From an uncultured Bacteroidales bacterium (GTDB lineage: Bacteria > Bacteroidota > Bacteroidia > Bacteroidales > F082): a DNA stretch of 64,000 bases. The stretch covers positions 59,326 through 123,325 of the forward strand of contig CAJOIS010000002.1 in the NCBI GenBank assembly GCA_905234645.1. Reading direction: 5' to 3'. The notes under the pieces were generated by a model, which was not told the origin of the DNA, ran no database searches, and saw nothing but the letters and a program-made list of their open reading frames with translations. A program made the translations under genes and the position numbers. Of this stretch, positions 32,010-45,440 are shown one piece after another. Positions within the stretch are counted from its first letter, which is position 1. Every line of letters starts with the position of its first letter.

Positions 32010-33143
32010 TTACTTCTTGTTCAGGAACTCACAAATAGCACCACAAATTCTATCCTGGTCCTCGTTGGTGAGGTAAGGATGGATGGGCAACGAAATCACC
32101 GTGTCGGCCAGCTGGTCGGCAACGGGGCAACGGTTGTCCTCAAGGTTCAGGTAGCTGAACGCCGTCTGACGGTGCATCGGGATGGGATAATAGATGGCCG
32201 TAGGGATGTCCAAAGCCTTCAAGGCAGCTTGCAATCCGGCACGCACTTCCTTGTTCTCCACCTGCAGCGTATATTGCGCCCAGCTGGAATAGAAGACTTC
32301 GGGGACGATAGGCGTCTTCACCACATCCTTCAGTTGCTCGGTATAGCGTGCCGCCACTTTGTTGACATCGTCAAGTTCATAGTCCTTGAAGGCCTTCAAC
32401 TTGACCAACAGGATGGCAGCCTGGATGCTGTCCATGCGCGAGTTCATGCCGATGCGGATGTTGTCGTAGCGGTCGCTGCCCTTGCCGTGGATATGGTAGG
32501 AGTCGACGAGTGCCGCCCATTCGTCGTTATTAGTGAACACTGCACCACCGTCGCCATAGCAGCCCACGGGCTTGGCGGGGAAGAACGAAGTGGTGGAGAT
32601 GTCGCCGAAAGTACATGCCTTTTGGTCACCGATGCGACCACCAAAACCCTGGGCACCGTCTTCGAGAACATAGAGGCCGTATTGGTCGGCCACCTTGCGG
32701 ATCGCCTTGAAGTCGGCAGGCAGACCGAACAGGTCGACGGCGATGACGACGCGAGGCGTGAGTTGTCCCTTCTTCAGGGTCTGCTCCACCTTGCGCTCCA
32801 GGTCGGCGACATCCATGTTGAACGTGTCCTTGTCGACATCGACGAAGACGGGCGTCGCGCCTTGCATGGCGATGACCTCCGCCGAGGCGAAGAAAGTGAA
32901 ACTGGGCACAAAGACAGCGTCGCCTGGTTTCACATCCCAGGCCTTGAGAGCCAACAACAAGGCATCGGTGCCACTGTTGCAGGCGATGCAATGCTTCACG
33001 CCGACATAGTCGGCAAAAGCCGTTTCCATCTCCTTGATTTTCGGGCCCATGACGTAAGCCGATGAGGCCACCACGTCGAGGATGGCCTTGTCCATGTCGT
33101 CCTTCAGGACGTTATATTGGGTTTTTAAATCTCTGAATTGCAT
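32010..33143 (-). CDS. DegT/DnrJ/EryC1/StrS family sugar aminotransferase (WbpE/PglE-like)
   Basis: CNSGTDALLLAL, FVPSFTFFASAE and the PLP-lysine region SFFPAKPVGCYGDGG. Confidence 0.9.
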   Translation of the reverse strand: MQFRDLKTQYNVLKDDMDKAILDVVASSAYVMGPKIKEMETAFADYVGVKHCIACNSGTDALLLALKAWDVKPGDAVFVPSFTFFASAEVIAMQGATPVFVDVDKDTFNMDVADLERKVEQTLKKGQLTPRVVIAVDLFGLPADFKAIRKVADQYGLYVLEDGAQGFGGRIGDQKACTFGDISTTSFFPAKPVGCYGDGGAVFTNNDEWAALVDSYHIHGKGSDRYDNIRIGMNSRMDSIQAAILLVKLKAFKDYELDDVNKVAARYTEQLKDVVKTPIVPEVFYSSWAQYTLQVENKEVRAGLQAALKALDIPTAIYYPIPMHRQTAFSYLNLEDNRCPVADQLADTVISLPIHPYLTNEDQDRICGAICEFLNKK

Positions 33144-33168
33144 CGTTTTATATCAATTGTATGGTCTG

Positions 33169-33196
33169 GTAGAGACGCAATGCATTGCGTCTCTAC
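33169..33196. repeat. GTAGAGACG..CGTCTCTAC hairpin, copy 1 (perfect 28-nt palindrome)
   Basis: GTAGAGACGCAATGCATTGCGTCTCTAC. It overlaps the TAG stop of the N-acetyltransferase gene, between two co-oriented genes. Confidence 0.8.
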
Positions 33197-33750
33197 AATG
33201 ATTCCAAATTTCCGTTGATTTCCTTATATTTTCTGCCACAATCGCATTGCAAGGTATGGTCGAGGCGTTTGCCGCATTCGCAAACCCATCCGATTTGACG
33301 GGCAGGCACGCCGGCCATCAGTGCATACGGCTTCACGTCTTTGGTCACCACAGCGCCGGCGGCGATTAGAGCGCTCTTGCCCACCGTATGGCCACACACC
33401 ACGGTGCAGTTGGCACCCAACGAAGCGCCTTCACAAATCCTGGTCTTGGCATACACGCCATGTACGGGGAAATGGGCGCGCGGCGTGGTCACATTAGTGA
33501 AGACGCAGCTGGGACCGCAGAACACATTGTCCTCGATTTCAACGCCTTCGTAGATGGAAACGTTGTTTTGGACGCGGACATTGTTGCCGATATGGACATT
33601 GTTGCCAACGTTCACATTCTGTCCGAACGAGCAGTTCTCGCCAATGACGGCGCCTTTTTGGATATGACAGAAATGCCATATCTTCGTCCCCTTGCCGATG
33701 CTCACGTTATCATCGACGTAACTGCTTTCGTGTATGTAATAGTCGTTCAT
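33193..33750 (-). CDS. Hexapeptide-repeat amino-sugar N-acetyltransferase (WbpD/WlbB-like) with C-terminal Cys cluster
   Basis: Hexapeptide repeats NVNVGNNVHIGNNVRVQNNVSI and a C-terminal CECGKRL..CDCG. Confidence 0.85.
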   Translation of the reverse strand: MNDYYIHESSYVDDNVSIGKGTKIWHFCHIQKGAVIGENCSFGQNVNVGNNVHIGNNVRVQNNVSIYEGVEIEDNVFCGPSCVFTNVTTPRAHFPVHGVYAKTRICEGASLGANCTVVCGHTVGKSALIAAGAVVTKDVKPYALMAGVPARQIGWVCECGKRLDHTLQCDCGRKYKEINGNLESL

Positions 33751-33773
33751 TTGATAGTCAATTTTACAGGCCT

Positions 33774-33811
33774 GCCCTTCGACCCTTCGACAAGCTCAGG
33801 GCTCAGGGACC
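33774..33811 (+). repeat. CCCTTCGACA..GCTCAGGGACC repeat family, copy 1
   Basis: GCCCTTCGACCCTTCGACAAGCTCAGGGCTCAGGGACC. It abuts the stop of the CCG-domain gene. Confidence 0.7.
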
Positions 33812-34534
33812 TTAATCCCAGCCCGAGGCTAGCACATCTGCGATGTGGATCACCTTAATGGGCAAACCTTCCTTTTCGATATAGGCCTTTTGATGCATCA
33901 GGCAAGTCATGTCAGTTGAAACGATATACTCAGCCCCTGTGTTCATTGCATTCTTCACCTTGTGACCTGCCATGCCCGACGCCAAAGTCTCGTGGTTCAC
34001 CTCCAAGGAAAAATCGGCGCCACAGCACATGTCGTTCTGTTTCATCTCCACCAGTTCAAGGCCTCTCACTTTGGAGAGCAGTTGACGTGCTTCCTTGCCT
34101 AGACCCAAGCCTCTCAGGGCACTGCAGCTATCGTGAAACGTCACCTTATACGGGAACTCAGCTCCAAAATCGTCAAAATGGACCTTGTTGACCAAGAAGT
34201 CGGTCAACTCGTAGACATTAGCCACCATCCGCTTGAAATTCAAGTGATTGGCAGTATTGAAGAAAAGTTCAGGATAACGTTTCTTGATATAATGCACACA
34301 TGCCGCCGAGGGAGCAACCACTGGGCCATCGTATGAGAAATCGTTGAGGAACTTGTCGCCCAGCTCCTTAGCTTCTTCAAGGAAACCGGCATTGAAGGCA
34401 AAGCGACCGCAGCAGGTCTGCTCCGGGTTATACTCCACTTCAACGCCAGTACGTTCCAACACTTTCATCGTATTGGAAGCCACCCTTGGAAAGAATTGGT
34501 CAATAAGGCAGGGTACGAAAAGTTCAACTTTCAT
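33812..34534 (-). CDS. (Fe-S)-binding CCG-domain oxidoreductase subunit (LutA/GlpC family)
   Basis: Two CCG motifs (EQTCCGRF and NDMCCGADF). Confidence 0.65.
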   Translation of the reverse strand: MKVELFVPCLIDQFFPRVASNTMKVLERTGVEVEYNPEQTCCGRFAFNAGFLEEAKELGDKFLNDFSYDGPVVAPSAACVHYIKKRYPELFFNTANHLNFKRMVANVYELTDFLVNKVHFDDFGAEFPYKVTFHDSCSALRGLGLGKEARQLLSKVRGLELVEMKQNDMCCGADFSLEVNHETLASGMAGHKVKNAMNTGAEYIVSTDMTCLMHQKAYIEKEGLPIKVIHIADVLASGWD

Positions 34535-34558
34535 CGCATTTTAAACATAAAAAACGGG

Positions 34559-34566
34559 CAAAAGTA
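34559..34566 (-). promoter_or_regulatory. -7 box (TACTTTTG on the minus strand) for the CCG-domain gene
   Basis: CAAAAGTA on the plus strand, 24 nt upstream of ATG 34534. Confidence 0.45.
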
Positions 34567-34613
34567 CGACTTTTATTTAAAATATATAAATAATATTCAA
34601 AAAACACGACATT

Positions 34614-35846
34614 TTACTGCCGAACAGGCAAAAATTCAGCATCATCCCAGAAGGTGGGATAGGACTTCCCCACTACTTCGGGATGGTCGAAACTGACAGG
34701 GCCGGCGAGCATAGAGAGCGGAGCCAAAGCCATGACGATACGATGGTCATTATGAGCGCAAAAACGAATCGGACGGCTATCCAATTTCGCTAACTCGGTT
34801 TGCATAGCCCGCACCCGATCCGACTCTTTGAACAGAAGGTTGTCAAGCCCCGTGAAAGTGGCTGTAACACCCAATCCGGCACAAGTGGCTGCCATGGTCG
34901 GATAGAGGTCAGGATGCTGGGAGAAATCGAAACGTAAAGGGCGTTTCTCAAAGGGAATCCTTCTCAAAACGAGGGCATCGTTTTCAACAAACGTCCCCAC
35001 ACCCAGTTGGGTCATCCACTCAGCGATAATGGCGTCGCCTTGTAAGTTCGCGGTCCCTGAGCCTGTCGAAGGAGTCGAAGGGCCGCCTAATCCTTGCAAA
35101 CAGACCTCACATTCCTCACTAAACGCCGCCATCTCGTACCAATAAGAGGCTGCGCTCCAATCGGATTCTATTGTAAAATATTGTTTCTCATATGGTTTTG
35201 GCCTGACGACAACCAGTTTGTCTTGTCTTTTAACCTGTGCCGAAAAATGGCACAACATTTTGATGGTCATGTCGAGATAAGGAAGGGAACTGGGACTGCC
35301 AACAAGCTCCATTTCAAGGCCTTGAGGAAACAACGGCGCCGCCAAAAGCAGGGATGAGGCGAACTGGCTGCTTTGGGTCATATCCACTTTCACTTTACCA
35401 CCTTGAAGGGCTTTGCCATGGATCCGCAAAGGAAGGCATCCTTCTTTTTCAACATACTGAATGTCAGCGCCTAAAGCCAACAAAGCATCAACTAAAGGCT
35501 GGATAGGTCGCTGTTTCATGCGCTCGGCGCCAGTGAGGAGCCAGTCGCCTTCGTGACATGCCAGATAGGTGGCCATGAAACGAGCTGCGGTGCCGCAGTC
35601 GGCAATGTTGATGATTGATGTACCTTGTTGAGTTTTATGAATGGCTTTAGAAAGCATAGATTCCTTGCCACGCGCTGCCCTATGCTGGAATGACATGCAT
35701 TCTAAAGCCTCTGCCAAAACCATGGTATCACCCGAATCCGAAAGGTTCCGGAAATCAGGCGCAAAGCCACCATACGCCGCAATCATCAAGGCACGGTTGC
35801 TCTCGCTCTTGCTGGCGGGTAGGGTGATGTCGCAATGAAGTTTCAT
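34614..35846 (-). CDS. aroA: 3-phosphoshikimate 1-carboxyvinyltransferase (EPSP synthase) carrying two in-frame repeat-element insertions
   Basis: LPASKSESNRALMIAA, DCGTAARF, RMKQRPI, SSQFASSLLLAAP, KESDR and NDHRIVMA motifs. See the repeats at 35052-35084 and 35643-35709. Confidence 0.9.
   Translation of the reverse strand: MKLHCDITLPASKSESNRALMIAAYGGFAPDFRNLSDSGDTMVLAEALECMSFQHRAARGKESMLSKAIHKTQQGTSIINIADCGTAARFMATYLACHEGDWLLTGAERMKQRPIQPLVDALLALGADIQYVEKEGCLPLRIHGKALQGGKVKVDMTQSSQFASSLLLAAPLFPQGLEMELVGSPSSLPYLDMTIKMLCHFSAQVKRQDKLVVVRPKPYEKQYFTIESDWSAASYWYEMAAFSEECEVCLQGLGGPSTPSTGSGTANLQGDAIIAEWMTQLGVGTFVENDALVLRRIPFEKRPLRFDFSQHPDLYPTMAATCAGLGVTATFTGLDNLLFKESDRVRAMQTELAKLDSRPIRFCAHNDHRIVMALAPLSMLAGPVSFDHPEVVGKSYPTFWDDAEFLPVRQ
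35052..35084 (-). repeat. CCCTTCGACA..GCTCAGGGACC repeat family, copy 2 (inside the aroA CDS)
   Basis: The minus strand reads GGCCCTTCGACTCCTTCGACAGGCTCAGGGACC, translated as GPSTPSTGSGT. Confidence 0.7.
35643..35709 (+). repeat. ATAGAT/ATGACAT palindromic element, copy E1 (inside the aroA CDS)
   Basis: GGCTTTAGAAAGC-ATAGAT-TCC-22nt-GGA-ATGACAT-GCATTCTAAAGCC. Confidence 0.85.
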
Positions 35847-36847
35847 GGATTCAGCGTCTTGGTCATAACATATTCCAATGCCGACCTCACCAGATCAGGT
35901 TCCACTTCGACATCCCAAACGGGTTTTTCAACTGCCTCAAGCAAAACGAATTGCGATTGCTCTCCTTTGTTCTTCTTGTCAAAAGCAAGGTATGAAAGGA
36001 TGGCGTCCGCATCGGATTCAGTCAACTTCATTTCCGATTCCGAAAGCAGCACGGGCAACTGTTTTTCATAGTCGATCAAAACCTTCTTATTCAGGCCACA
36101 TTGCTTCACGGAGAGCCACAACGCCGCAGCCATACCCATAGCCACCGCCTCGCCATGCAGCAAATGGCTTTCCTTCGTCAGGCTATGGCTTTCAATGGCG
36201 TGGCCGATGGTGTGGCCGAAGTTCAACACTTTGCGCAAACCTTTTTCGGTCGGATCTTGTGCTACAATCTCGCGTTTTATCTCACCGCAACGGAGAATGT
36301 AATCCTGATAATTCTCCAAATTGACATTCAGTAAATTCGCATCAGCGATGAAACCATATTTCAGCATCTCGGCGAGACCCGACAGGATTTCCCGTCTAGG
36401 CAACGTCGACAAAAACACTGGGTCGGCCAGCACTTCCTCCGCCTCGGCAAAAGTGCCGATTTGGTTTTTGGCGGCGCCAAAATCAATGCCGGTCTTCCCT
36501 CCTATCGCTGCGTCGACCATGGCGAGCAGCGTCGTAGGGATGTTGATAAACTTGATGCCGCGCTTGTAGGTCGAAGCTGCAAAGCCGCCCAGGTCGGTGA
36601 TAGTTCCTCCGCCAAGATTGATAATCAAGGCGTTACGGTCAGCATAGTGCTTCAGCAGGGTCTTCCAAATACGCTGCACAGTTTGCAGGTTTTTGTGTTG
36701 TTCGCCAGGCTTAATGATGATATCGACGGCATTTTCACAACCGAGCCAAAACTTTACTTCAGGCAGCCAAAACGGGGCTACATTCTCATCGGTCAGAATG
36801 AATACTTGAGAGGCTTCGGCTATGGTTCGTTTCAGTTTATCGTTCAT
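35843..36847 (-). CDS. aroB: 3-dehydroquinate synthase
   Basis: GGGTITDLGGFAASTYKRGIKFINIPTTLLAMVDAAIGGKTGIDF and LNFGHTIGHAIE motifs. 4-nt overlaps on both sides. Confidence 0.9.
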   Translation of the reverse strand: MNDKLKRTIAEASQVFILTDENVAPFWLPEVKFWLGCENAVDIIIKPGEQHKNLQTVQRIWKTLLKHYADRNALIINLGGGTITDLGGFAASTYKRGIKFINIPTTLLAMVDAAIGGKTGIDFGAAKNQIGTFAEAEEVLADPVFLSTLPRREILSGLAEMLKYGFIADANLLNVNLENYQDYILRCGEIKREIVAQDPTEKGLRKVLNFGHTIGHAIESHSLTKESHLLHGEAVAMGMAAALWLSVKQCGLNKKVLIDYEKQLPVLLSESEMKLTESDADAILSYLAFDKKNKGEQSQFVLLEAVEKPVWDVEVEPDLVRSALEYVMTKTLNP

Positions 36848-37347
36848 TTCAAACCCATTAAAAACGGATAAATGCTTCCGTATATCCTACTTGATTCCTC
36901 GTCGGTGTTCCAATTCAGGATTTCTCCTTTGCGATTGCACACCAACTTAACAGGAGTATAATTCACTCGTTTATAACCAGATAACAACTCTGCGCATTCC
37001 TTGTTGATGAACCTTTTGTCAAGAAGCGGATTGCGCGAAGACATGTTGCAAATCACCACATTCTTGTCAAGGCTTTCCAAACTTGAAACCTGCTCCATTT
37101 CACCCAGACCAACCAACACAATCGCCTTAGTATCTGAGGCTTTACTAAGATATGGTTTTAGATTATTTTCAAAATCGCTCTGACTCGCCTGGCACCAAGA
37201 TGTCATGAAATAAAGGATGGTCGTGTCATGGTTGTCAATCGTTTCCACAACTTTCTGACGGTCATAACCCGAATAGTTCTGATTACAGGAAACAACCATA
37301 ATCGCCATAACCGCACAAAGAGAAGCCATCAATTTTTTCATAATCAA
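36844..37347 (-). CDS. Thioredoxin-fold (TlpA/redoxin-like) exported protein with CxxS motif
   Basis: Signal/lipobox-like N-terminus (MVVSC) and YFMTSWCQAS, i.e. CxxS rather than CxxC. Confidence 0.55.
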   Translation of the reverse strand: MIMKKLMASLCAVMAIMVVSCNQNYSGYDRQKVVETIDNHDTTILYFMTSWCQASQSDFENNLKPYLSKASDTKAIVLVGLGEMEQVSSLESLDKNVVICNMSSRNPLLDKRFINKECAELLSGYKRVNYTPVKLVCNRKGEILNWNTDEESSRIYGSIYPFLMGLK

Positions 37348-37781
37348 TCCGTTATGATTTCACATTTTATAATTCTTTCATCATCCGTTTCGCCATGCCG
37401 AATCTCCACACGGATATATTTTTCAGGCATCAGCGGCTCTATCATCTCAGGCCACTCGATAAGGCAAAGGTTGCCGCTATCGAAATAGTTCTCGAAGCCG
37501 ATGTCGTAGGCTTCTTCCAGCTTTTTAATACGGTAGAAATCAAAATGATAGACCGAATCGCCTTCCTCAGTTATGTACTCGTTGACGATGGCAAATGTTG
37601 GGCTGTTCACCTCGTCGGTGACGCCCATGCGGTGGCACAGATTTTTGATTAAAGTCGTCTTGCCCGCGCCCATCGAGCCGTAAAAGGCGATGACGTCGGC
37701 CTCATCGCGCATAGAGAGCAAATAATCGGAGACCTCCGAGAGCTGCTCCACGCCACTTATATTGAATAGTTTATCCTTCAT
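37344..37781 (-). CDS. tsaE: tRNA t6A37 biosynthesis ATPase TsaE
   Basis: FYGSMGAGKTTLIK, NSPTFAIVNEY and YHFDFYR. The ATG at 37781 is chosen because the track TTG start (37802) lies inside a TAnnTTTG box. Confidence 0.85.
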   Translation of the reverse strand: MKDKLFNISGVEQLSEVSDYLLSMRDEADVIAFYGSMGAGKTTLIKNLCHRMGVTDEVNSPTFAIVNEYITEEGDSVYHFDFYRIKKLEEAYDIGFENYFDSGNLCLIEWPEMIEPLMPEKYIRVEIRHGETDDERIIKCEIITD

Positions 37782-37799
37782 TGCAAACGTTTTACGCTG

Positions 37800-37807
37800 C
37801 AAAGATA
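37800..37807 (-). promoter_or_regulatory. -7 box (TATCTTTG on the minus strand) for tsaE-aroB-aroA
   Basis: CAAAGATA on the plus strand, 19 nt upstream of ATG 37781. Confidence 0.45.
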
Positions 37808-37819
37808 GTGTTTATTTAT

Positions 37820-37956
37820 CACAAAACCTGCAAAACCCTCAAAACCTTTCGCTTAACACGGCGGCGGCTTGCAACCGCTTGCCGCCGGAAAGCCCGCCGG
37901 TTGGCGTGGCTTTCCAACTTCTATATCAAGGTTTTGTCAGTTTTGCTAGTTTTGTG
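37820..37956. repeat. Composite palindrome: CAAAACC-repeat arms enclosing two GC-rich hairpins, downstream of porX
   Basis: The left arm CACAAAACCTGCAAAACCCTCAAAACC and right arm GGTTTTGTCAGTTTTGCTAGTTTTGTG match at about 22 of 27 positions. The inner hairpins are CGGCGGC..GCCGCCG (37862-37887) and AAAGCCCGCC..GGCGTGGCTTT (37889-37913). Confidence 0.65.
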
Positions 37957-37968
37957 ACCAATCAATTC

Positions 37969-39522
37969 TTACTTCGCCGTGAGGTGCGTCACTGGGATAA
38001 GCATCTCATTCATCGAGATGCCGCCATGCTGGAAAGTGTTGCGGTAATAGCTGACGTAATAGTTGTAGTTGTTGGGATAGGCAAAGAAGTCGCTCTTGCC
38101 TGCGAAAACATAGGCCGTACTCAGGTTGACCTTCGGCAAAAAGATCTTCTCCGGGTCTTTCACCTCAAACACTTCTTTCGGATTGTATTTCAAGTTCTTG
38201 CCGTACTTATAACGCAAATTGGTGTTCACTTCGCGGTCGCCCAAAATGCGGACAGGGTCTTTCACATATGTGGAGCCATGGTCGGTGGTGATGATCATGT
38301 CACAGCCTTTTTCTGCGATGAAGCGCATCATGTCGAAGAGGCTGGAATGCTCGAACCACGAGTACATCAGCGAGCGGTAGGCTTCCTCGTCGTCGGCCAA
38401 TTCGCGGATGATTTCCATCTCGGTGCGGGCATGGGAAAGCATGTCAACGAAATTGTACACGATGACATTCAACTTGTTCTGCATCAGGTTCGACATCTGC
38501 TCAAAGAGTTTTTTGCCCGCCTGCAGGTTCAGCACCTTATTATAAGAGTACTTGATGTTCTTTCCGAAACGCTTCAGCTGTTCGCCTAGCAGCTCGCCCT
38601 CAAACTGGTTCTTGGTGCCTTCGTCCTCCTCGTCCACCCACCACTGACGATAGCGACGGCGGATTTCGAGCGGCATCAATCCAGCGAAGAGGGAATTACG
38701 AGCGTATTGTGTGGTGGTAGGCAGGATGCTGTAGTACACATCGTCGGCCTCCACATGGAAATAGTTTTCAACCAGTGGTTGAATGGCTTTCCATTGATCG
38801 TAGCGCAGGTTATCAATGACGATGAGGAATAACGGCTTATCGCCGCCATCAAGGCGTGGAATCACCTTGTCGCGCACCACTGTATGCGACATCACAGGCT
38901 TTTCGGAACGTCCTTGAATCCAATCCACGTAATTTCGTTCAATGTAACGCGTGAACTGCGTGTTGGCTTCTTGCTTTTGGTCGGCGAGGATGCCCTTGAT
39001 GCCTTCGTCAGTCGACTTTTGCAGTTCCAACTCCCAGCGCACGAGTTTCTTATACAGGGCGATCCATTCGTCGAAGTCGAGGTTGTCGTTCAGGTCCATG
39101 CTGATCTGTCGGAACTCCTGCTGGTATCGCATCGACGACTTCTCGTCGCGTAACGTGCGATTCTCGAGATTACGTTTCAGCGACAGCAAAATCTGGTTCG
39201 GGTTCACAGGCTTAATAAGGTAATCCGCTATGTTGGAGCCGATGGCGTCTTCCATGATGCGTTCCTCCTCGCTCTTGGTGATCATCACCACGGGGAGGTT
39301 GGGATATTCGCGCTTGATGACTTCGAGCGCCTCGATGCCCGAGATGCCCGGCATCTGCTCGTCTAAGAAAACAATGTCGAAATGACGTTGGCGCACAAGG
39401 TCGATGGCGTCGGAGCCGTTGTTGGCTGTAACTACCTCATAGCCTTTTTGTTCCAGAAACATGATATGGGGCTTCAGGAGATCAATCTCGTCGTCGGCCC
39501 AAAGTATTGTCGTTTTGTCCAT
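37969..39522 (-). CDS. porX: Response-regulator receiver plus PglZ domain protein (T9SS regulator PorX-type)
   Basis: ILWADDEIDLL..IVFLDEQMPG receiver domain and a C-terminal PglZ/alkaline-phosphatase-like region. Its size (517 aa) matches PorX. Confidence 0.8.
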   Translation of the reverse strand: MDKTTILWADDEIDLLKPHIMFLEQKGYEVVTANNGSDAIDLVRQRHFDIVFLDEQMPGISGIEALEVIKREYPNLPVVMITKSEEERIMEDAIGSNIADYLIKPVNPNQILLSLKRNLENRTLRDEKSSMRYQQEFRQISMDLNDNLDFDEWIALYKKLVRWELELQKSTDEGIKGILADQKQEANTQFTRYIERNYVDWIQGRSEKPVMSHTVVRDKVIPRLDGGDKPLFLIVIDNLRYDQWKAIQPLVENYFHVEADDVYYSILPTTTQYARNSLFAGLMPLEIRRRYRQWWVDEEDEGTKNQFEGELLGEQLKRFGKNIKYSYNKVLNLQAGKKLFEQMSNLMQNKLNVIVYNFVDMLSHARTEMEIIRELADDEEAYRSLMYSWFEHSSLFDMMRFIAEKGCDMIITTDHGSTYVKDPVRILGDREVNTNLRYKYGKNLKYNPKEVFEVKDPEKIFLPKVNLSTAYVFAGKSDFFAYPNNYNYYVSYYRNTFQHGGISMNEMLIPVTHLTAK

Positions 39523-39592
39523 AGTCTTAGTGTTTATGGATATAAAACGCGAAAATAGGCAATTTGTTTTAATAAGATGAACTTTTTTGGAC

Positions 39593-39659
39593 GGCTTTTA
39601 AAAGCATAGATTCCCTCTCTCGCACAAACCCTCGCAGGAATGACATACTTTTAAAAGCC
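39593..39659 (+). repeat. ATAGAT/ATGACAT palindromic element, copy E2
   Basis: GGCTTTTAAAAGC-ATAGAT-TCC-22nt-GGA-ATGACAT-ACTTTTAAAAGCC. Same 67-nt length as E1. Confidence 0.85.
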
Positions 39660-39682
39660 TAAATAAACAATACTATTCACTA

Positions 39683-39738
39683 AGCCTTCGATGTCATTCC
39701 AGCAGAGGAAGTGGGTAGGCTGGAATCTATCGAAGGCT
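39683..39738 (-). repeat. ATAGAT/ATGACAT palindromic element, copy E3 (inverted orientation)
   Basis: AGCCTTCG-ATGTCAT-TCC-21nt-GGA-ATCTAT-CGAAGGCT. Confidence 0.85.
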
Positions 39739-39789
39739 GGTCACGCGATGACATGCTTTCTGAAAGCTGCTTATACGGTTATAAACGCC

Positions 39790-39847
39790 CGACCTTCGAT
39801 GTCATTCCGACAGGGGAAGTGGGCTGGCTGGAATCTATTGGAGGTCG
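39790..39847 (-). repeat. ATAGAT/ATGACAT palindromic element, copy E4 (inverted orientation)
   Basis: CGACCTTCG-ATGTCAT-TCC-21nt-GGA-ATCTAT-TGGAGGTCG. It is part of a ~105-bp tandem duplication with E3. Confidence 0.85.
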
Positions 39848-39881
39848 GGCGATCATACGTATTGCTTTCTGAAAAAAACAC

Positions 39882-39889
39882 TATTTTTG
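39882..39889 (+). promoter_or_regulatory. -7 box (TATTTTTG) for the HD-domain gene
   Basis: Matches TAnnTTTG, 18 nt upstream of ATG 39908. Confidence 0.5.
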
Positions 39890-39907
39890 CAGCAAAATTC
39901 ATGGCCC

Positions 39908-41146
39908 ATGGCAAGCGCATCCAACAAAAAGAAGATCTTCAACGACCCCATCTATGGCTTCGTCAGCATCCCCGACGAGCTGCACTTCGACATCATCGAG
40001 CACCCTTATTTCCAACGCCTTAGACGCATCAAGCAGGTCAGTTTGACCAACATGGTGTATCCCGGCGCTAACCACACTCGCTTCACCCACAGCCTTGGCA
40101 CCATGCACCTCATGCGGCATGCCATACAGCTACTGCGAGGAAAGGGTTACGACATAACCGACGAAGAATTGGAAGCTGCCTCGTTGGCCATCCTGCTCCA
40201 CGACAGCGGACACGGGCCATTCTCGCACACATTGGAGAACAGCATTGTTCAGGGCGTCTCGCACGAGGAGTTGTCGTTGATGGTGATGCAGAAGTTCAAC
40301 GAGATTCACGACGGACGGCTCGATTTGGCCATCCAACTATTCAAGGGGGAATACGAGAAGGGCTTCTTGAGCAAACTCATTTCCAGCCAGTTGGACGTGG
40401 ACCGCATCGACTACCTAAAGCGCGACAGTTTCTTCACTGGTGTGGCAGAGGGCAGCGTCAACGCAGAAAGACTGTTGGAGATGGTTGAAGTGGTCGACAA
40501 CGAGTTGGCCATCGAAGCCAAGGGTATCTATTCCGTGGAGAGCTTCATTGTGGCGCGCCGCATCATGTACTGGCAGGTGTACATGCACAAAGCGGTGTTG
40601 AGTGCAGAATACATGTTACGCAACATCCTGAAACGTGCCAAAATGCTCAGCCAAGAGCGCGACTTGTTCGCCACCCCGGCCCTGTCGTTCTTTCTGAAAA
40701 ACCAGAATCCTTTTGCGAACGGCAACGATCCCGATTACGTCCTGGACAAGTTCTGCCAGTTGGACGACTACGATGTGATGACGGCAGTGAAAGCCTGGCG
40801 CGACGACAAAGACCGCGTGCTTTCCGAGCTTTGCAGGCGCCTGACCGACAGGCATTTGTTTAAAATAGAGATGCGGGAAGGGGAATTTGAGCCCCAATAT
40901 ATTGAGGACATCCGTAAAAAGATCGCCCAATACTATGGATGGACGTTGGAGGAGGCGGACTTTGCCTTGTTACAGGGCATTTCCTCGAACCACGCCTACC
41001 ACCCCAAGAAGCCCGCCATCAACATCCTTTACAAGGACGGCACGATGAAGGACATCAGCGAGGCCTCCGATCAACTGAACATCTCGGTGCTGAAACAGCC
41101 CGTGGTGAAGCATTTTATTTGCTATCCGAAGGAGCTGCTGGTATAA
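39908..41146 (+). CDS. HD-domain dNTP triphosphohydrolase-like phosphohydrolase
   Basis: NDPIYGFVSIP, RFTHSLGTMHL and LLHDSGHGPFSH. The ATG at 39908 is chosen because the track TTG (39887) lies inside the -7 box. Confidence 0.8.
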   Translation: MASASNKKKIFNDPIYGFVSIPDELHFDIIEHPYFQRLRRIKQVSLTNMVYPGANHTRFTHSLGTMHLMRHAIQLLRGKGYDITDEELEAASLAILLHDSGHGPFSHTLENSIVQGVSHEELSLMVMQKFNEIHDGRLDLAIQLFKGEYEKGFLSKLISSQLDVDRIDYLKRDSFFTGVAEGSVNAERLLEMVEVVDNELAIEAKGIYSVESFIVARRIMYWQVYMHKAVLSAEYMLRNILKRAKMLSQERDLFATPALSFFLKNQNPFANGNDPDYVLDKFCQLDDYDVMTAVKAWRDDKDRVLSELCRRLTDRHLFKIEMREGEFEPQYIEDIRKKIAQYYGWTLEEADFALLQGISSNHAYHPKKPAINILYKDGTMKDISEASDQLNISVLKQPVVKHFICYPKELLV

Positions 41147-41151
41147 TAAAA

Positions 41152-41179
41152 GTAGAGACGCGCCATGGCACGTCTCTAC
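41152..41179. repeat. GTAGAGACG..CGTCTCTAC hairpin, copy 2 (probable terminator of the minus-strand lipoprotein gene)
   Basis: GTAGAGACGcgccatggcaCGTCTCTAC. On the minus strand it is followed by TTTTATTAT. It lies between convergent genes. Confidence 0.75.
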
Positions 41180-41197
41180 AAAAAGTATATTTCAGTA

Positions 41198-42304
41198 TTA
41201 TTTATCTTTGCCCATCAATGAGCCCGTCCTAAAGTGCAGATTATCCACTGCCTTTCGACCTACCGGCTTGGAAGGCGTATTGCTGACACGCTTCAAATAT
41301 GCCTTCTCAATGCAATTCTGATAATACTCGTTTTCGTACACAAAAACATCGTCACTTATTTCCTTGATCTGAAGCCTAAAAGCACGTCCATCATCCATAT
41401 TTAAAAACAGGGCACTACTCTCTTCATCAAGGACATATGCATAGCTTGACACCAAAACCGTATCGGGACAAACAATGTGGGTTTCATAAGATTCAGTTTC
41501 CTCGTTCCAATCCAACCATAATTCTTCAATGGAACTATCGCGCATTTCACCAGAATTGTCTTCCCTAAAATACATTTGGATGCCGTTGTCGGTGGAATAA
41601 GGTTCGAATAAGAATGTACTCATTGAGGCTGCAATAGGATTACCTGCATAGTCAGTATTGTAATATTCAAACTTTTCAACACCCCAAACGCCAATGATAA
41701 GATTCTCTGGCTGCTCAACAATAACAGTTACGACATATTCAGCTTGAGAGCCATCCTCAGCGGTCACGGTATATGTTACAGGTTGGGAAAAGTCAGTAAC
41801 ATAATCCGAACAAGGCACAACACTATCATCGTCAGAAACAATGATGGTGGGGACTAAAACTGTAACATCTGTGCCATAAGGCACCGTGGCTTCTATTTCT
41901 TTCGTGTCTTCATTAATAACCGCATCGATATTCAAAGACACAAACCGAAATGCAAGAATTCTTTTTTCGCTGTTTTTTTCATTAGTAACAACTGCTAAAT
42001 AAACCGATTGCGACCCATCTTCCGCTGTCACCGTGTAAGTCACTGGATTTGTAAAATCCATAGGCTCACCAGACAGCGGGCTAATCGTAGCCTTATCCGA
42101 AATGGTGATAATGGGCGTCAAATTGGTGAGATCAGTTCCATAAGGCATTTCCGCTTCAATCCTTCCATCGGAGCATATATCGGCCGTCACATCAGGATTA
42201 GCAAACTGAAATGAGAGGATTTCTTTTTCGCTGCTCTTTTTTTGGCAACTCGATAATACCATTAGAATTGCCAAAATGACGATTGAATTGATCGCTTTTT
42301 TCAT
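41198..42304 (-). CDS. Lipoprotein with two tandem Ig-like repeats and a C-terminal domain
   Basis: Lipobox LSSC. There are two ~85-aa repeats, each ending PVTYTVTAEDGSQ..Y. Confidence 0.6.
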   Translation of the reverse strand: MKKAINSIVILAILMVLSSCQKKSSEKEILSFQFANPDVTADICSDGRIEAEMPYGTDLTNLTPIITISDKATISPLSGEPMDFTNPVTYTVTAEDGSQSVYLAVVTNEKNSEKRILAFRFVSLNIDAVINEDTKEIEATVPYGTDVTVLVPTIIVSDDDSVVPCSDYVTDFSQPVTYTVTAEDGSQAEYVVTVIVEQPENLIIGVWGVEKFEYYNTDYAGNPIAASMSTFLFEPYSTDNGIQMYFREDNSGEMRDSSIEELWLDWNEETESYETHIVCPDTVLVSSYAYVLDEESSALFLNMDDGRAFRLQIKEISDDVFVYENEYYQNCIEKAYLKRVSNTPSKPVGRKAVDNLHFRTGSLMGKDK

Positions 42305-42348
42305 AGTGATTGGCTTTTAATTGTATTCTATAAACTTCTTAATACATC

Positions 42349-42402
42349 GCAGGTATAGATCCCAAGCCTACACACATGCCAGCGTTGGGATGACACGCCT
42401 GC
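42349..42402 (+). repeat. ATAGAT/ATGACAY palindromic element, copy E5
   Basis: GCAGGT-ATAGAT-CCCAA-19nt-TTGGG-ATGACAC-GCCTGC, followed by a partial duplicate, TGACATGCCTGC. Confidence 0.75.
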
Positions 42403-42414
42403 TGACATGCCTGC

Positions 42415-42873
42415 TTAGGACCTCTGATTCATCGCTTTAGCCCGGCGCTTCGAGTCCTCCATCACCTCCAAAGCCTGTTGTTGTAAGAATTTCTCTTCTT
42501 CCGTTTCAGGCGCAAGTGTGATGCCATGGGGCTTGGAGTGGTGATTTTCATCAAGATAGGAGAAGGTGGCGAAACCGTCAGCGGCGATTTTTTCGGGCTC
42601 GCGGCTGCGGTACATTTTCGTGTAGACAGTGAGGGTGCTTCGCCCAGCGGCAATCACCTTGCTCTCGAAAGTGACGATGTCGCCGGCGAAAATCGGGAAC
42701 TTGAAGTCGATGCCGTGGAGCACGAGCAGGACGGTGTCCTTCGTATCAACATACTGCGCCACAGCAAAATAGGAACTCTCTAAAAACCACTCCGAGCAAC
42801 GACCAGCGAAGAAGGTCTGATGGTGGTTGAGGTCAGCGAGTTTGATCAGTCTTTGGGAATAGGTTGCTTTCAT
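42415..42873 (-). CDS. Hotdog-fold acyl-CoA thioesterase
   Basis: Its length and the HHQTFFAGRCSEW..VTFESKVIAAGRSTL pattern are typical of YciA/4HBT-type thioesterases. Confidence 0.7.
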   Translation of the reverse strand: MKATYSQRLIKLADLNHHQTFFAGRCSEWFLESSYFAVAQYVDTKDTVLLVLHGIDFKFPIFAGDIVTFESKVIAAGRSTLTVYTKMYRSREPEKIAADGFATFSYLDENHHSKPHGITLAPETEEEKFLQQQALEVMEDSKRRAKAMNQRS

Positions 42874-42914
42874 ATTCAGTTGTTCAGTTATTCAGTTAAT
42901 GAGTTGTTCAGTTG
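42874..42914 (-). repeat. Tandem octamer leader (CAACTGAA-like x5) immediately upstream of the thioesterase ATG
   Basis: The plus strand reads a-TTCAGTTG-TTCAGTTA-TTCAGTTA-ATGAGTTG-TTCAGTTG. Confidence 0.75.
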
Positions 42915-42978
42915 CCTATGGCTGATGGCTCATGGCCTATGGCTTGCCACTACAATGGGGCAGCCATTGGCCATAGGC
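42914..42978. repeat. GCCTATGG/CCATAGGC-rich imperfect palindrome at the 3' end of the MBL gene
   Basis: GCCTATGGCTGATGGCTCATGGCCTATGGC..GCCATTGGCCATAGGC. The right arm reaches the MBL gene's stop codon. Confidence 0.5.
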
Positions 42979-43751
42979 TATAGACCATTGTTTATTTCGA
43001 TTTTCAGTCCATCGTAAGCGAGCATCATGCCTTTGGGGAGCTCGCGGTTGACATCGGCGGCGAGGCCCATGCTGTGGCTGCAATGCGTGAACCAAGTCTT
43101 TTTCGCTCCCACCCTTCTGGAAATCTCTATCGCTTCATCCAAGGTGAGATGTGAATAGTGTTTCTTCTTTTGCAGCGCCTCAATAATCAGGTATTCAACG
43201 CCTTGCAATTTCTCTATCGCTTCTTCTGAAATCTCGCTCAAGTCGGTTACGTAGGCAAAGTTACCGATGCGAAAGGCGTAGCAAGTCAAAGTGAAATGTT
43301 TCAGTTTAATAGGCACAAAATGCAGGTCTCCGATATCAAAAGGCGTTTCATCAAGGCGGCGGATTTCGTATGTCGGAGCACCGGGATAGGGATGTTCCTC
43401 AAAGGCGTATGAATATTCGCGCTTGATTTCGGGCAAGGCGGTGTCGGCGACATACAGCGGCATAGGTTTTTGCTGCTTGAAAATGTAGGGGCGCAAATCG
43501 TCGAGACCACCGATGTGATCTTTATGCTCGTGCGAGATAATCACCGCATCCAATTTGGTGACGTTTTCCCGAAGCATCTGCTGGCGGAAATCGGGGCCGG
43601 CGTCCACAGCCACCGTCACCTCGTCGGTTTGGATCAAAATGGAAGTACGCAGGCGCTTGTCGAGTGGATCCGAGGACTGGCACACAGGACAAGTGCAGCC
43701 GATGACGGGCACGCCTTGCGATGTTCCACTACCTAATATTGTGACAATCAT
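42978..43751 (-). CDS. MBL-fold metallo-hydrolase (PhnP-like)
   Basis: ILGSGTSQGVP and the HEHKDH (HxHxDH) motif. Confidence 0.8.
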   Translation of the reverse strand: MIVTILGSGTSQGVPVIGCTCPVCQSSDPLDKRLRTSILIQTDEVTVAVDAGPDFRQQMLRENVTKLDAVIISHEHKDHIGGLDDLRPYIFKQQKPMPLYVADTALPEIKREYSYAFEEHPYPGAPTYEIRRLDETPFDIGDLHFVPIKLKHFTLTCYAFRIGNFAYVTDLSEISEEAIEKLQGVEYLIIEALQKKKHYSHLTLDEAIEISRRVGAKKTWFTHCSHSMGLAADVNRELPKGMMLAYDGLKIEINNGL

Positions 43752-43863
43752 GTTCTTATCCTTTCATAAACCCACAAAAGGGATTTCCGAATTCCATTTG
43801 CAAAAATAGCGATTTTTCAACAAAAAGGCATCCTATCTCATAGAATTTCCCTACATTTGCGGC

Positions 43864-44409
43864 ATGAAAATTTCTTCCTATCTTCGGAATAGAGCCTTAA
43901 AGCATGCTTTTGAGCAGTTTCTCGCCGAGAAGACACCCGCCAAAATGCCCAATCTTCAGCGGATTAACTCCGTGTTGGTCATCCTTGACGAGAACGACAA
44001 GAGCATCCATAAAAACATAGAAAGCAGCGTAAAAGCCCTTTTCGGCGCCGGCCGTTGTGGCTTCATCATCCTCTGCAATCAGATGTCGGACACCATCTTG
44101 CAAAGCGACCTCTATAACGAGATTACGCCCAAGGACTTCGGCTTTATGAGTGTGCTGAAACCAGAAAAGCACGAATACCTAAGGAAATTACCTTACAGTG
44201 CGATGATCATCAACATGGCCGGAAAGAGTTCCGAAATCAGCGACTATCTCTGCACCTTGCCGAAGTCTGACTTCAGGATCAGCTTCCAGCAGAGCAAAAA
44301 CGCCGGGCTTTATGATTTGGTCATTGAAAATCCCAGAAACACCGACCCTGTTTCCAACATCCACGTCCTGCACAACTACCTGAAAGCGTTGGCGGGGCCA
44401 CAACAATAG
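43864..44409 (+). CDS. Hypothetical protein
   Basis: Long ORF with plausible composition. The start is uncertain because a TAnnTTTG box ends only 4 nt before the ATG. Confidence 0.45.
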   Translation: MKISSYLRNRALKHAFEQFLAEKTPAKMPNLQRINSVLVILDENDKSIHKNIESSVKALFGAGRCGFIILCNQMSDTILQSDLYNEITPKDFGFMSVLKPEKHEYLRKLPYSAMIINMAGKSSEISDYLCTLPKSDFRISFQQSKNAGLYDLVIENPRNTDPVSNIHVLHNYLKALAGPQQ

Positions 44410-44422
44410 CAATGAATATACT

Positions 44423-44461
44423 TTAAGGTCCGGGCCCTTCGACAGGCTCTGGGACCCTTAA
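44423..44461 (+). repeat. CCCTTCGACA..GCTCAGGGACC repeat family, copy 3
   Basis: TTAAGGTCCGGGCCCTTCGACAGGCTCTGGGACCCTTAA. It is itself an imperfect palindrome, upstream of dapA. Confidence 0.7.
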
Positions 44462-44477
44462 GTCGAGAATAAAAACA

Positions 44478-45365
44478 ATGAAAAACAACATATTTAAAGG
44501 AACGGGCATTGCCCTAATTACTCCGTTCAAGCAAGACCAATCCGTTGACGTTGAGGCTTTAACCAATATTGTCAACCATGTTATTGATAATGGCGCGGAT
44601 TTCTTGGTCGTCCTTGGCACTACCTCCGAAGCCCCTACCCTTTCCTCCGAGGAAAAGAAACTGGTCATCAGCACGGTTTTGAAGGCCAACAATGGCCGTC
44701 TGCCTATCATGCTCGGTATGGGCGGCAACAACACGCAAGCTGTCATCGATGCCATCAAAGCACAAGACTTCACCGGCATCCAAGGCATCTTAAGCGTCGT
44801 ACCTTTCTACAACAAGCCCAACCAGCGCGGCATGAGAGCCCACTTCGAGGCCATCGCTGACGCCTGTCCCGTACCCGTTGTGCTCTATAACGTGCCCGGT
44901 CGTGTAGGCGTCAACCTGCAAGCTGCCACCTGTGTGGAACTGGCCAAGCATCCTAACATCATTGCCGTCAAGGAAGCCTCTGGTAACTTACAGCAAATCA
45001 TGGAGATATTGCGCGACAAGCCCGCCGACTTTGACGTGCTTTCGGGCGACGACGGCATCACCCAACCGTTGATGGCTTTGGGCGCAACAGGTGTTATCTC
45101 GGTGGCTGCCAATGCCTATACCCAGCCTTTCAGCCGCATGATGCATGCCTTGAAGGAAGGTCGTAATGACGAGGCTCTGCGTCTGCATTACGCCATGCTG
45201 AAGATGAACCAACTCATTTTCGCCGACGGCAACCCTGCGGGTATCAAATGTTTGCTGAGCAAGATGGGGTTGTGTCAGAATGTGTTGAGGCTGCCTTTGG
45301 TCTGCGTCAATGAAAAAGTGGAAGCGGACATTGTTGAAGAATGGAATTCATTAAAGAACAAGTGA
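44478..45365 (+). CDS. dapA: 4-hydroxy-tetrahydrodipicolinate synthase
   Basis: GTGIALITPF, LGTTSE, YNVPGR and AVKEASG (catalytic Lys). Confidence 0.9.
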   Translation: MKNNIFKGTGIALITPFKQDQSVDVEALTNIVNHVIDNGADFLVVLGTTSEAPTLSSEEKKLVISTVLKANNGRLPIMLGMGGNNTQAVIDAIKAQDFTGIQGILSVVPFYNKPNQRGMRAHFEAIADACPVPVVLYNVPGRVGVNLQAATCVELAKHPNIIAVKEASGNLQQIMEILRDKPADFDVLSGDDGITQPLMALGATGVISVAANAYTQPFSRMMHALKEGRNDEALRLHYAMLKMNQLIFADGNPAGIKCLLSKMGLCQNVLRLPLVCVNEKVEADIVEEWNSLKNK

Positions 45366-45384
45366 TAGACTGGATTGCTTCGCT

Positions 45385-45410
45385 TCGCTCGCAATGACGC
45401 GAAGCGACAG
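45385..45410 (+). terminator. Hairpin downstream of dapA (no T-run)
   Basis: CGCTTCGC-tcgcaatgac-GCGAAGCG, an 8-bp perfect stem. It may be a terminator or repeat-family member (the CGCTTCGCTCGCAATGAC type). Confidence 0.4.
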
Positions 45411-45440
45411 AATGATTGAAAATATTAAAACATACATACA

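Follow-up and report, generated by a model that had tools for sequence, protein, structure and literature searches.

An in-frame copy of a dispersed hairpin repeat in an AroA loop of a rumen Bacteroidales, with a candidate GIY-YIG nuclease partner

Among the described families of dispersed palindromic repeats, the Rickettsia palindromic elements (RPEs) were reportedly presented by Ogata et al. in 2000. Repetitive extragenic palindromes (REPs) are likewise found inside genes, and in related species a given gene can hold different REPs at nearly one position, as recB does in Xanthomonas (Di Nocera et al. 2013, PMC3733652). In addition, Chenal et al. (2025, PMC11893778) described the Ssn proteins, nucleases with a lone GIY-YIG domain whose genes are flanked by hairpin repeats (NTS/SRM) that the enzymes cleave in single-stranded form; the report mentions neither Bacteroidota nor intragenic or in-frame copies, and our literature search found no link between a small GIY-YIG gene and either in-frame repeats or the Bacteroidota. 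Here we describe a window of 64,000 nucleotides from an uncultured Bacteroidales bacterium (assembly GCA_905234645.1, contig CAJOIS010000002.1), in which aroA, encoding 5-enolpyruvylshikimate-3-phosphate (EPSP) synthase, carries 33 nt of repeat DNA in frame. We consider it very probable that these 33 nt represent one solo copy of a hairpin repeat found dispersed through the genome, tolerated in a loop of the enzyme, rewritten across the genus and cognate to a small GIY-YIG gene. The window corresponds to C2:59326-123325 of a draft genome, G000, comprising 2.59 Mb in 77 contigs (50.6% G+C, 84% complete, 4.8% estimated contamination); other places in this genome are given by contig (C), and compared genomes and loci by G and L numbers.

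The aroA gene (34614 to 35846, minus strand) encodes 410 residues, with PF00275 present in all homologues and an E-value of 1.6e-52 to PDB entry 3NVS. The insert (35084 to 35052, minus strand) reads GGCCCTTCGACTCCTTCGACAGGCTCAGGGACC, exactly 11 codons giving GPSTPSTGSGT as the original prediction had it, in the protein context ...EVCLQGLG-GPSTPSTGSGT-ANLQGDAIIA.... The same prediction had set it against a shorter loop in enterobacterial AroA, a comparison that holds, with AroA from Vibrio cholerae (3NVS) displaying TGIGKNSIQGD at this position. All the residues invariant in 21 orthologues are intact, known catalytic positions among them, including K13, S14, N17, R18, R89, R113, Q158-Q161, D313, K340, E341, R344, H368, R369, and K394. 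As in other intragenic repeats, the insert lies in an intact conserved open reading frame (ORF), its length is a multiple of three, and 21 congeners have a loop of only four residues in its place. An AlphaFold2 model built from 21 sequences, of moderate quality (mean predicted local distance difference test score, pLDDT, 66.8), shows a strand (247-251) and a helix (269-279) joined by a coil, residues 251-270, whose pLDDT stays below 50; residues 53-66, belonging to a first repeat element of the same gene (35643-35709), are also modelled with pLDDT below 50.

The family to which the insert belongs was counted with the 20-nt core CCTTCGACAGGCTCAGGGAC, allowing up to three mismatches, and it reaches 80 matches in the genome where about none are expected by chance; exact matches to the 15-mer CTTCGACRRGCTCAG number 65, against none for the reversed sequence that served as control. 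Within the window the core has three matches against 0.03 expected, a number reached by none of 100 shuffles. The aroA copy matches the core without mismatch at 35053-35072 (minus strand), and both of its arms also match the family at the DNA level. The consensus of 66 copies, (C)GGCCCTTCGACAGGCTCAGGGACC(TT), defines a 24-nt unit, and the boundaries drawn from it divide the aroA insert into a unit, GGCCCTTCGAC|AGGCTCAGGGACC, and a 9-nt duplication of the left arm, CCTTCGACT. Position, length and frame of the predicted 33-nt motif therefore stand, whereas the repeat unit itself is the 24 nt of GGCCCTTCGACAGGCTCAGGGACC, the remaining 9 nt being the arm duplication. The proposed origin of the insert, from an intergenic repeat family with no relation to the first aroA element, is borne out by the identical DNA at some 80 places and by the unrelated, longer sequence of the first element.

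Both non-coding copies named in the original prediction were found again. The first (33774-33811, plus strand), GCCCTTCGACCCTTCGACAAGCTCAGGGCTCAGGGACC, is a long form of 38 nt as read, in which 8 nt of the left arm and 7 nt of the right arm are duplicated. It fills the space separating two genes of the same strand, and in congener G035 the simple 24-nt form is found at the orthologous position. The second (44424-44461, plus strand) comprises a simple unit, GGGCCCTTCGACAGGCTCTGGGACCC, at 44432-44457, enclosed by the complementary flanks TTAAGGTCC and GGACCCTTAA and located 16 nt upstream of the ATG of the next gene. The full long form comprises 39 nt, the two duplications adding 8 nt to the left end of the unit and 7 nt to its right end, and reads in frame GPST-LRQAQ-GSGT. 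The 9-nt left-arm duplication seen in aroA recurs in the coding copies C3:102648 and C3:106179, whereas three non-coding copies (C15:4554, C37:740, and C44:2617) carry an 8-nt version, a difference that fits selection for an intact frame, in a sample of three against three. Rfam gave no match at E ≤ 1 in positions 33000-46000 of the window. The GTAG or CGTC end tags of the REP superfamilies (Di Nocera 2013) are absent from the unit, the reverse strand of which begins GGTCCC; CGTC is only internal, in the minority ACGGGC variant, and a form from other lineages, TGTCATGC..., bears a (C/T)GTC-like tag.

The AroA loop, taken as the residues between GL and xQGD, was surveyed in 30 congeners and in outgroup Bacteroidota. 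The loop comprises four residues in the outgroup and in 21 of the 30 congeners, including every congener with 0-6 copies of the core, and inserts are confined to genomes with 36-110 copies (Fisher p = 8e-4). The orthologue alignment proposed in the original prediction thus gives inserts only where the family numbers at least 36 copies, and the outcome named there as refuting, the segment conserved in AroA of genomes without the repeat, was not seen. The repeat-rich congeners G085 and G092 have an empty site, and empty sites read CTTTCGTCGCTTCA or CTTTCGATTCGCTTCA. Where the loop is filled, the unit is recognizable at the DNA level (i) forward in the frame giving GPSTGSGT, (ii) forward as a long form, (iii) forward as PFDRLRD, (iv) reversed as SLSLSKG, and (v) reversed as VPE(L/P)VEGP; GPSTLRQAQGSGT is likewise read in orthologous loops. 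In the 114 closest AroA sequences the loop states cover both orientations, with the forward unit read in three frames and the reverse unit in two, besides long forms and an element of another kind.

A native, lineage-specific linker rich in Gly, Ser, Thr, and Pro, kept by selection on the protein and resembling intergenic DNA secondarily or by coincidence, might account for one striking feature of the loop, the constancy of GPSTGSGT, which is present in at least 62 of the 120 nearest AroA homologues, at 68-80% identity. Moreover, the same peptide stands at nine C-terminal domains of type IX secretion system (T9SS) cargo proteins, where a flexible linker makes sense. We nevertheless regard this explanation as very improbable: the same 20-24 nt occur some 80 times in the genome, mostly between genes, all congeners without the family keep a four-residue loop, and orthologues hold the same DNA reversed or frame-shifted, giving the unrelated peptides SLSLSKG, VPEPVEGP, and PFDRLRD, which selection at the protein level cannot explain. 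An assembly or binning artefact, for which a 77-contig draft with some estimated contamination might give cause, is more improbable still, since the insert is shorter than a read and leaves the frame intact, and dozens of independent assemblies from other samples have the element at the same codon.

The loop has changed repeatedly. A tree of 114 close AroA sequences, from which the loop was removed before tree building, demands at least 29 changes of loop state, and the well-supported branches alone force at least 17 for the commonest state. Decayed copies are also found, such as APSIGSGI in L006 and CSPSTVRRAPSP in G073. The sister alleles L205 and L206 (83-87% nucleotide identity) show the route of an orientation switch, with a forward unit beside a degenerate reverse unit in the former and the reverse unit only in the latter. 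A clean target-site duplication or a simple inversion in place was considered and rejected: filled and empty, or forward and reverse, alleles differ by unequal numbers of codons, so that neither model fits and dimer intermediates fit better.

These many states might instead have arisen by separate de novo insertions into a favoured target sequence of aroA, and not by later rewriting of a single old insertion. Both orientations and different elements do occur at the same codon, and the two empty-site sequences loosely resemble the unit core, where nested copies insert. This resemblance is weak, however; the loop is occupied in almost all of the 120 nearest homologues, intermediates are seen in sister alleles (the forward unit beside a degenerate reverse one, for example), and a whole patch is exchanged at strain level. 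Repeated independent insertion is accordingly rather unlikely in our judgement, and the rewriting of an already occupied site is the reading that we prefer.

The exchange of such a patch is seen in the comparison with the strain-level contig L143, where aroA outside the loop differs by three substitutions only. In contrast, 32 differences fall within the 67 alignment columns of positions 35043-35109 (minus strand), where the L143 allele is GGCCTTTCGACAGGCTCAAGGACC, read as GLSTGSRT; this is a short recombination patch, and some of the changes counted on the tree may hence be transfers of alleles. A second short patch lies in aroB at 36149-36205 (15 differences in 57 nt), and the region upstream of aroB (36592-37027) is swapped in L143 for unrelated, repeat-rich sequence, which indicates mosaic recombination between strains. 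Two further observations concern AroA. The same loop is filled in L007, L013-L015, L069 (G094), and L070 (G068) by another element, about 100 nt long and giving the peptide ...HRYxPSAAHVMPTDEGGRAS..., whose ends, CATGTCAT...ATCTATG, are also those of the first aroA element. Besides, the database proteins P0002, P0011, and P0030 display an N-terminal extension of about 40 residues (...SSRALTRDL...PPCLGDGGCSSAM...) that looks like translated upstream repeat DNA from a wrong start call.

Sites other than aroA show the same dynamics. Twenty element sites of G035 were aligned to G000, with flanks at about 76-80% nucleotide identity, and ten of them share an element. Between the two genomes an orientation switch is seen within an Exo_endo_phos gene, a unit becomes an inverted dimer within a PHP gene, a dimer within an rmlB-like gene is found in G035 only, nested copies of +15 and +24 nt are inserted exactly at the unit centre GAC|AGG, and other repeat families are found at the same intergenic spots. 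At the seven shared sites of the same orientation the unit is identical at 134 of 143 positions against 1245 of 1633 in the flanks (p = 1e-7), a difference that is inflated by the choice of consensus-like sites.

That identity, 94% against 76% for largely coding flanks, is one of the points in favour of a role of the element at the DNA or RNA level, whereby the aroA copy would be kept as a target of a hairpin nuclease modulating recombination or DNA uptake, as NTS in Neisseria, or as an mRNA structure, and would not be a tolerated passenger. The strain-level patch centred on the element recalls the raised diversity beside dRS3/NTS repeats (PMC11893778), and the hairpin loop shows phylum-wide sequence conservation. 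The identity, however, suffers from the bias of site choice given above, clearly decayed aroA copies (L006 and G073) persist, the repeat-rich G085 and G092 do well with an empty site, and unrelated elements fill the same loop elsewhere. Such a role is thus unlikely, somewhat more so than repeated insertion, and a tolerated passenger remains the favoured description of the aroA copy.

The original prediction extended from aroA to a recurrent in-frame colonization of loops in this genome, and the survey of genic copies confirms it. Thirty-one copies lie within long ORFs, 30 of which were scanned against Pfam, and a copy was accepted as genic when Pfam domains stood on both sides or the copy lay inside a domain envelope; at least 23 copies, possibly about 32, are inside real genes. 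The host genes encode Exo_endo_phos_3, HemN, OppC, an ABC ATPase, DcuC, a tricorn-like protease, an alpha-2-macroglobulin (with two units), a Mur ligase, KdtA, APH/RapZ_C, SBP_bac_5, PHP, and SdhA/FrdA proteins, together with nine T9SS cargo proteins, one of them a C25 peptidase, that carry the unit at the C-terminal sorting domain as assigned by Pfam (C1:16196, C3:102648, C3:106179, C10:65903, C11:16322, C17:9297, C20:1880, C41:3545, and C41:6472). In eight of these nine the unit stands in the linker directly before the sorting domain (...EDGPSTGSGTFVVYPNP...), and in C20:1880 at the C-terminal end of the domain; either no other site is as permissive as the T9SS linker, or duplication of the tails carried the unit along.

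The 24-nt unit is open in five of its six frames, the sixth containing a TGA. The frame giving a peptide rich in PST and SG was suspected to be preferred, and it is: among firmly coding copies GPSTGSGT is read 16 times, VPEPVEGP four times, ALRQAQG three times, and PFDRLRD and SLSLSKG not at all (chi-square p = 1e-7), the ratio falling to 7:4:3:0:0 (p = 0.014) when the possibly paralogous T9SS genes are removed. A literature search with the repeat peptides (LRQAQ, FDKLR, SLSLSK, and others) returned unrelated matches only.

Across the phylum, the 15-nt core is present in 79 of 301 sampled Bacteroidota genomes and in 63 of their 144 genera, the reversed control being near zero. The arms vary by lineage yet remain complementary, as in ATGC...GCAT, AGTC...GACT, and TGCC...GGCA. 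In a set of 146 distinct units, the three pairs adjoining the 13-nt loop TTCGACRRGCTCA are complementary in 95-97%, against 49-78% with shuffled partners, and at least ten stem types occur (CCC/GGG, CGT/ACG, TGC/GCA, GGT/ACC, CCT/AGG, GAC/GTC, GCC/GGC, GGC/GCC, GTC/GAC, and TCC/GGA). A conserved loop combined with a stem that covaries across lineages identifies the unit as a hairpin. Folded as single-stranded DNA, inverted dimers are strong (-20.4 kcal/mol, z = -5.5). A distant Bacteroidota genome (L144, G370:C11:627200-627900) contains at least three units of the hairpin repeated in tandem every 66 nt with near-identical spacers, an array that on inspection is neither coding nor CRISPR-like.

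The candidate partner of the repeat is a GIY-YIG gene of about 90 codons. The survey of GIY-YIG loci, in 16 repeat-rich genomes, was begun after a cluster of units had been seen around a small GIY-YIG ORF in one genome; a unit lies within about 100 nt of 10 of 26 small GIY-YIG genes and of none of four uvrC loci. Among congeners, close homologues (47-100% identity) of the gene in G094 are flanked by units on both sides in six of seven cases and on one side in the seventh, with a minus-strand unit about 40 nt upstream and a plus-strand unit about 20 nt downstream, and perfect inverted termini of 22-26 nt surround the gene in G090, G094, and G096; of 17 distant paralogues, none or one is bracketed. 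The G094-type gene is present in 7 of 17 repeat-rich and in none of 24 repeat-poor congeners (p = 9e-4). The protein matches PF01541 only in Pfam and, weakly, a group I intron endonuclease family in NCBIfam, and its closest solved structures are the UPF0213 proteins 1ZG2 (E = 1.8e-13) and 1YWL.

The sole small GIY-YIG gene of the G000 draft (C25:23379-23621, minus strand) is bracketed by inverted copies of a different repeat, GGATTGCTTCGTCGCTGGCGCTCCTCGCAATGACG, whose ends, GAT(T)GCTTCG...GCA(A)TGAC, recur in the other-lineage form of the aroA unit and which, like that form, fails the published SRM pattern. A REP-associated tyrosine transposase (RAYT) was also considered as partner and rejected, both Y1_Tnp genes (PF01797) of G000 being flanked by a different repeat and not by the aroA unit. 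These two RAYT-like genes (C16:2648-2872 and C38:2638-2862, both minus strand) have their own hairpin repeats, ...CATTGTCGCCGACTGCGTCCCGCAGTCGG... and TTCATTTGCGAGACGCAAATGACGACAATGA, and represent a second pair of enzyme and repeat in this genome.

Taken together, the following sequence of events is proposed. The repeat comprises a covarying stem of 3-4 bp, the conserved 13-nt loop, and a 3' (G)AC tail, and a copy of it has probably landed in the AroA coil between β-strand and helix where four residues stand without it. With the unit open in five of six frames, such an insertion would only lengthen a disordered surface loop and the enzyme would keep working; judged from the sequence, the loop is probably translated and harmless. 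The 9-nt arm duplication of the aroA copy is the frame-preserving version of the 8-nt duplication of non-coding copies. Across the genus the occupied site is then rewritten, new units joining beside or inside old ones to give inverted dimers or nested +15/+24-nt copies at GAC|AGG, while old ones are lost by decay or deletion and alleles pass between strains in short recombination patches; by this rewriting orthologous loops come to read GPSTGSGT, GPSTLRQAQGSGT, PFDRLRD, SLSLSKG, or VPEPVEGP. The repeat, finally, is very probably the cognate flank of the single-domain GIY-YIG gene in the order unit(-), gene, unit(+), a layout matching Ssn/SRM and analogous to RAYT and the REP doublets forming hairpins (REPINs), and by this analogy the nuclease would cut the hairpin in single-stranded DNA and so drive its spread and rewriting.

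Several results weigh against this account. Besides the bias in the unit-to-flank comparison, part of the 29 changes on the tree may represent recombinational exchange of alleles and not separate events, and the disorder suggested for the AroA loop may partly be low confidence of the model. Single units fold weakly as single-stranded DNA (-2 to -9.5 kcal/mol, z = +0.5 to -2.3) and not better than shuffles, so that the hairpin rests on covariation and not on energy. The cognate GIY-YIG gene was not found by tblastn in G000, an 84%-complete draft that yielded only a paralogue of 39% identity and a fragment of 19 residues, and the near-complete, repeat-rich congeners G092 and G077 also lack a G094-type gene. 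Likewise, the published SRM pattern (Chenal 2025), HGTCWYN(0-2)YYVSBRHN(0-5)WNVSBRGN(0-2)RNCYNB, matches neither the unit, the aroA copy nor the other-lineage form on either strand, whereas it matches the NTS control, and its eight matches in G000 are unrelated. With this failure, and with UPF0213 proteins as nearest structures, membership in the Ssn clade is no more than possible, and the pair of GIY-YIG gene and repeat may work like Ssn/SRM by analogy.

A wider and more tentative possibility, which we hold as doubtful, is a REPIN/RAYT-like system of Bacteroidota in which the UPF0213-like nuclease of about 90 residues recognizes the hairpin through the phylum-conserved loop TTCGACRRGCTCA, copies or rewrites it, and thereby re-drafts permissive loops of housekeeping enzymes. 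Owing to the five open frames of the unit, such a system would act as a peptide writer, and, if new units home beside or into old ones, a site once occupied would stay a hotspot.

In-frame colonization of essential genes by selfish hairpin repeats thus reaches beyond Rickettsia and a few Proteobacteria, and it is common in a free-living rumen Bacteroidales, where, for one family, roughly one copy in three or four is in coding frame. The aroA loop offers a natural experiment on what a surface loop of EPSP synthase tolerates, the same 24 nt being read in five frames at one structural position. The link of repeat and GIY-YIG gene would carry the concept of Ssn over to a further phylum and to a hairpin of another architecture, and supplies a concrete candidate pair of enzyme and substrate. 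For annotation, such repeats give rise to spurious 'hypothetical proteins' (ALRQAQG, PFDRLRD, SLSLSKG, and VPEPVEG peptides) and to wrong gene starts in metagenomes, and the local mosaicism to which they lead can distort strain typing as well as phylogenies of marker genes.

Compared with known systems, the phenomenon resembles the Rickettsia RPEs and the intragenic REPs (PMC3733652). As in these, short palindromic repeats are dispersed mainly between genes and also stand in frame in many functional genes, housekeeping ones among them, adding 8-30 residues and occurring as single units, dimers, and clusters; they differ from the present family in phylum and sequence, the unit here having no GTAG/CGTC end tag, a stem of 3-4 bp with a large conserved loop instead of a long stem, a GIY-YIG nuclease and not a Y1 transposase as candidate partner, and, within a single genus, five different frames and orientations in which one loop is read. 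The first aroA element, a 67-nt hairpin, is likewise an in-frame repeat in a low-confidence loop of the same gene, rewritten in relatives, although longer and unrelated in sequence. With REPIN/RAYT and bacterial interspersed mosaic elements (Nunvar 2010, PMC2817692; Bertels & Rainey 2011, PMC3116915), the shared features are one or few enzyme genes with inverted flanking repeats, many solo or inverted-dimer copies elsewhere, and vertical inheritance with a copy number very variable between close relatives, the enzyme class here being GIY-YIG instead. The closest parallel in layout is Ssn/SRM (PMC11893778), which shares the single-domain GIY-YIG gene of about 90 codons with hairpin copies on both sides, the dispersal of the same repeat in tens to hundreds of copies, a repeat number that follows the presence of the gene, and a separate repeat for each nuclease subfamily; however, NTS has a stem of 9 bp and a loop of 3 nt, against 3-4 bp and 13 nt in the unit, which fails the SRM pattern. 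What is new with respect to the RPEs and intragenic REPs is the different phylum, the loop-dominated hairpin, the GIY-YIG partner, and an essential-enzyme loop rewritten in five frames.

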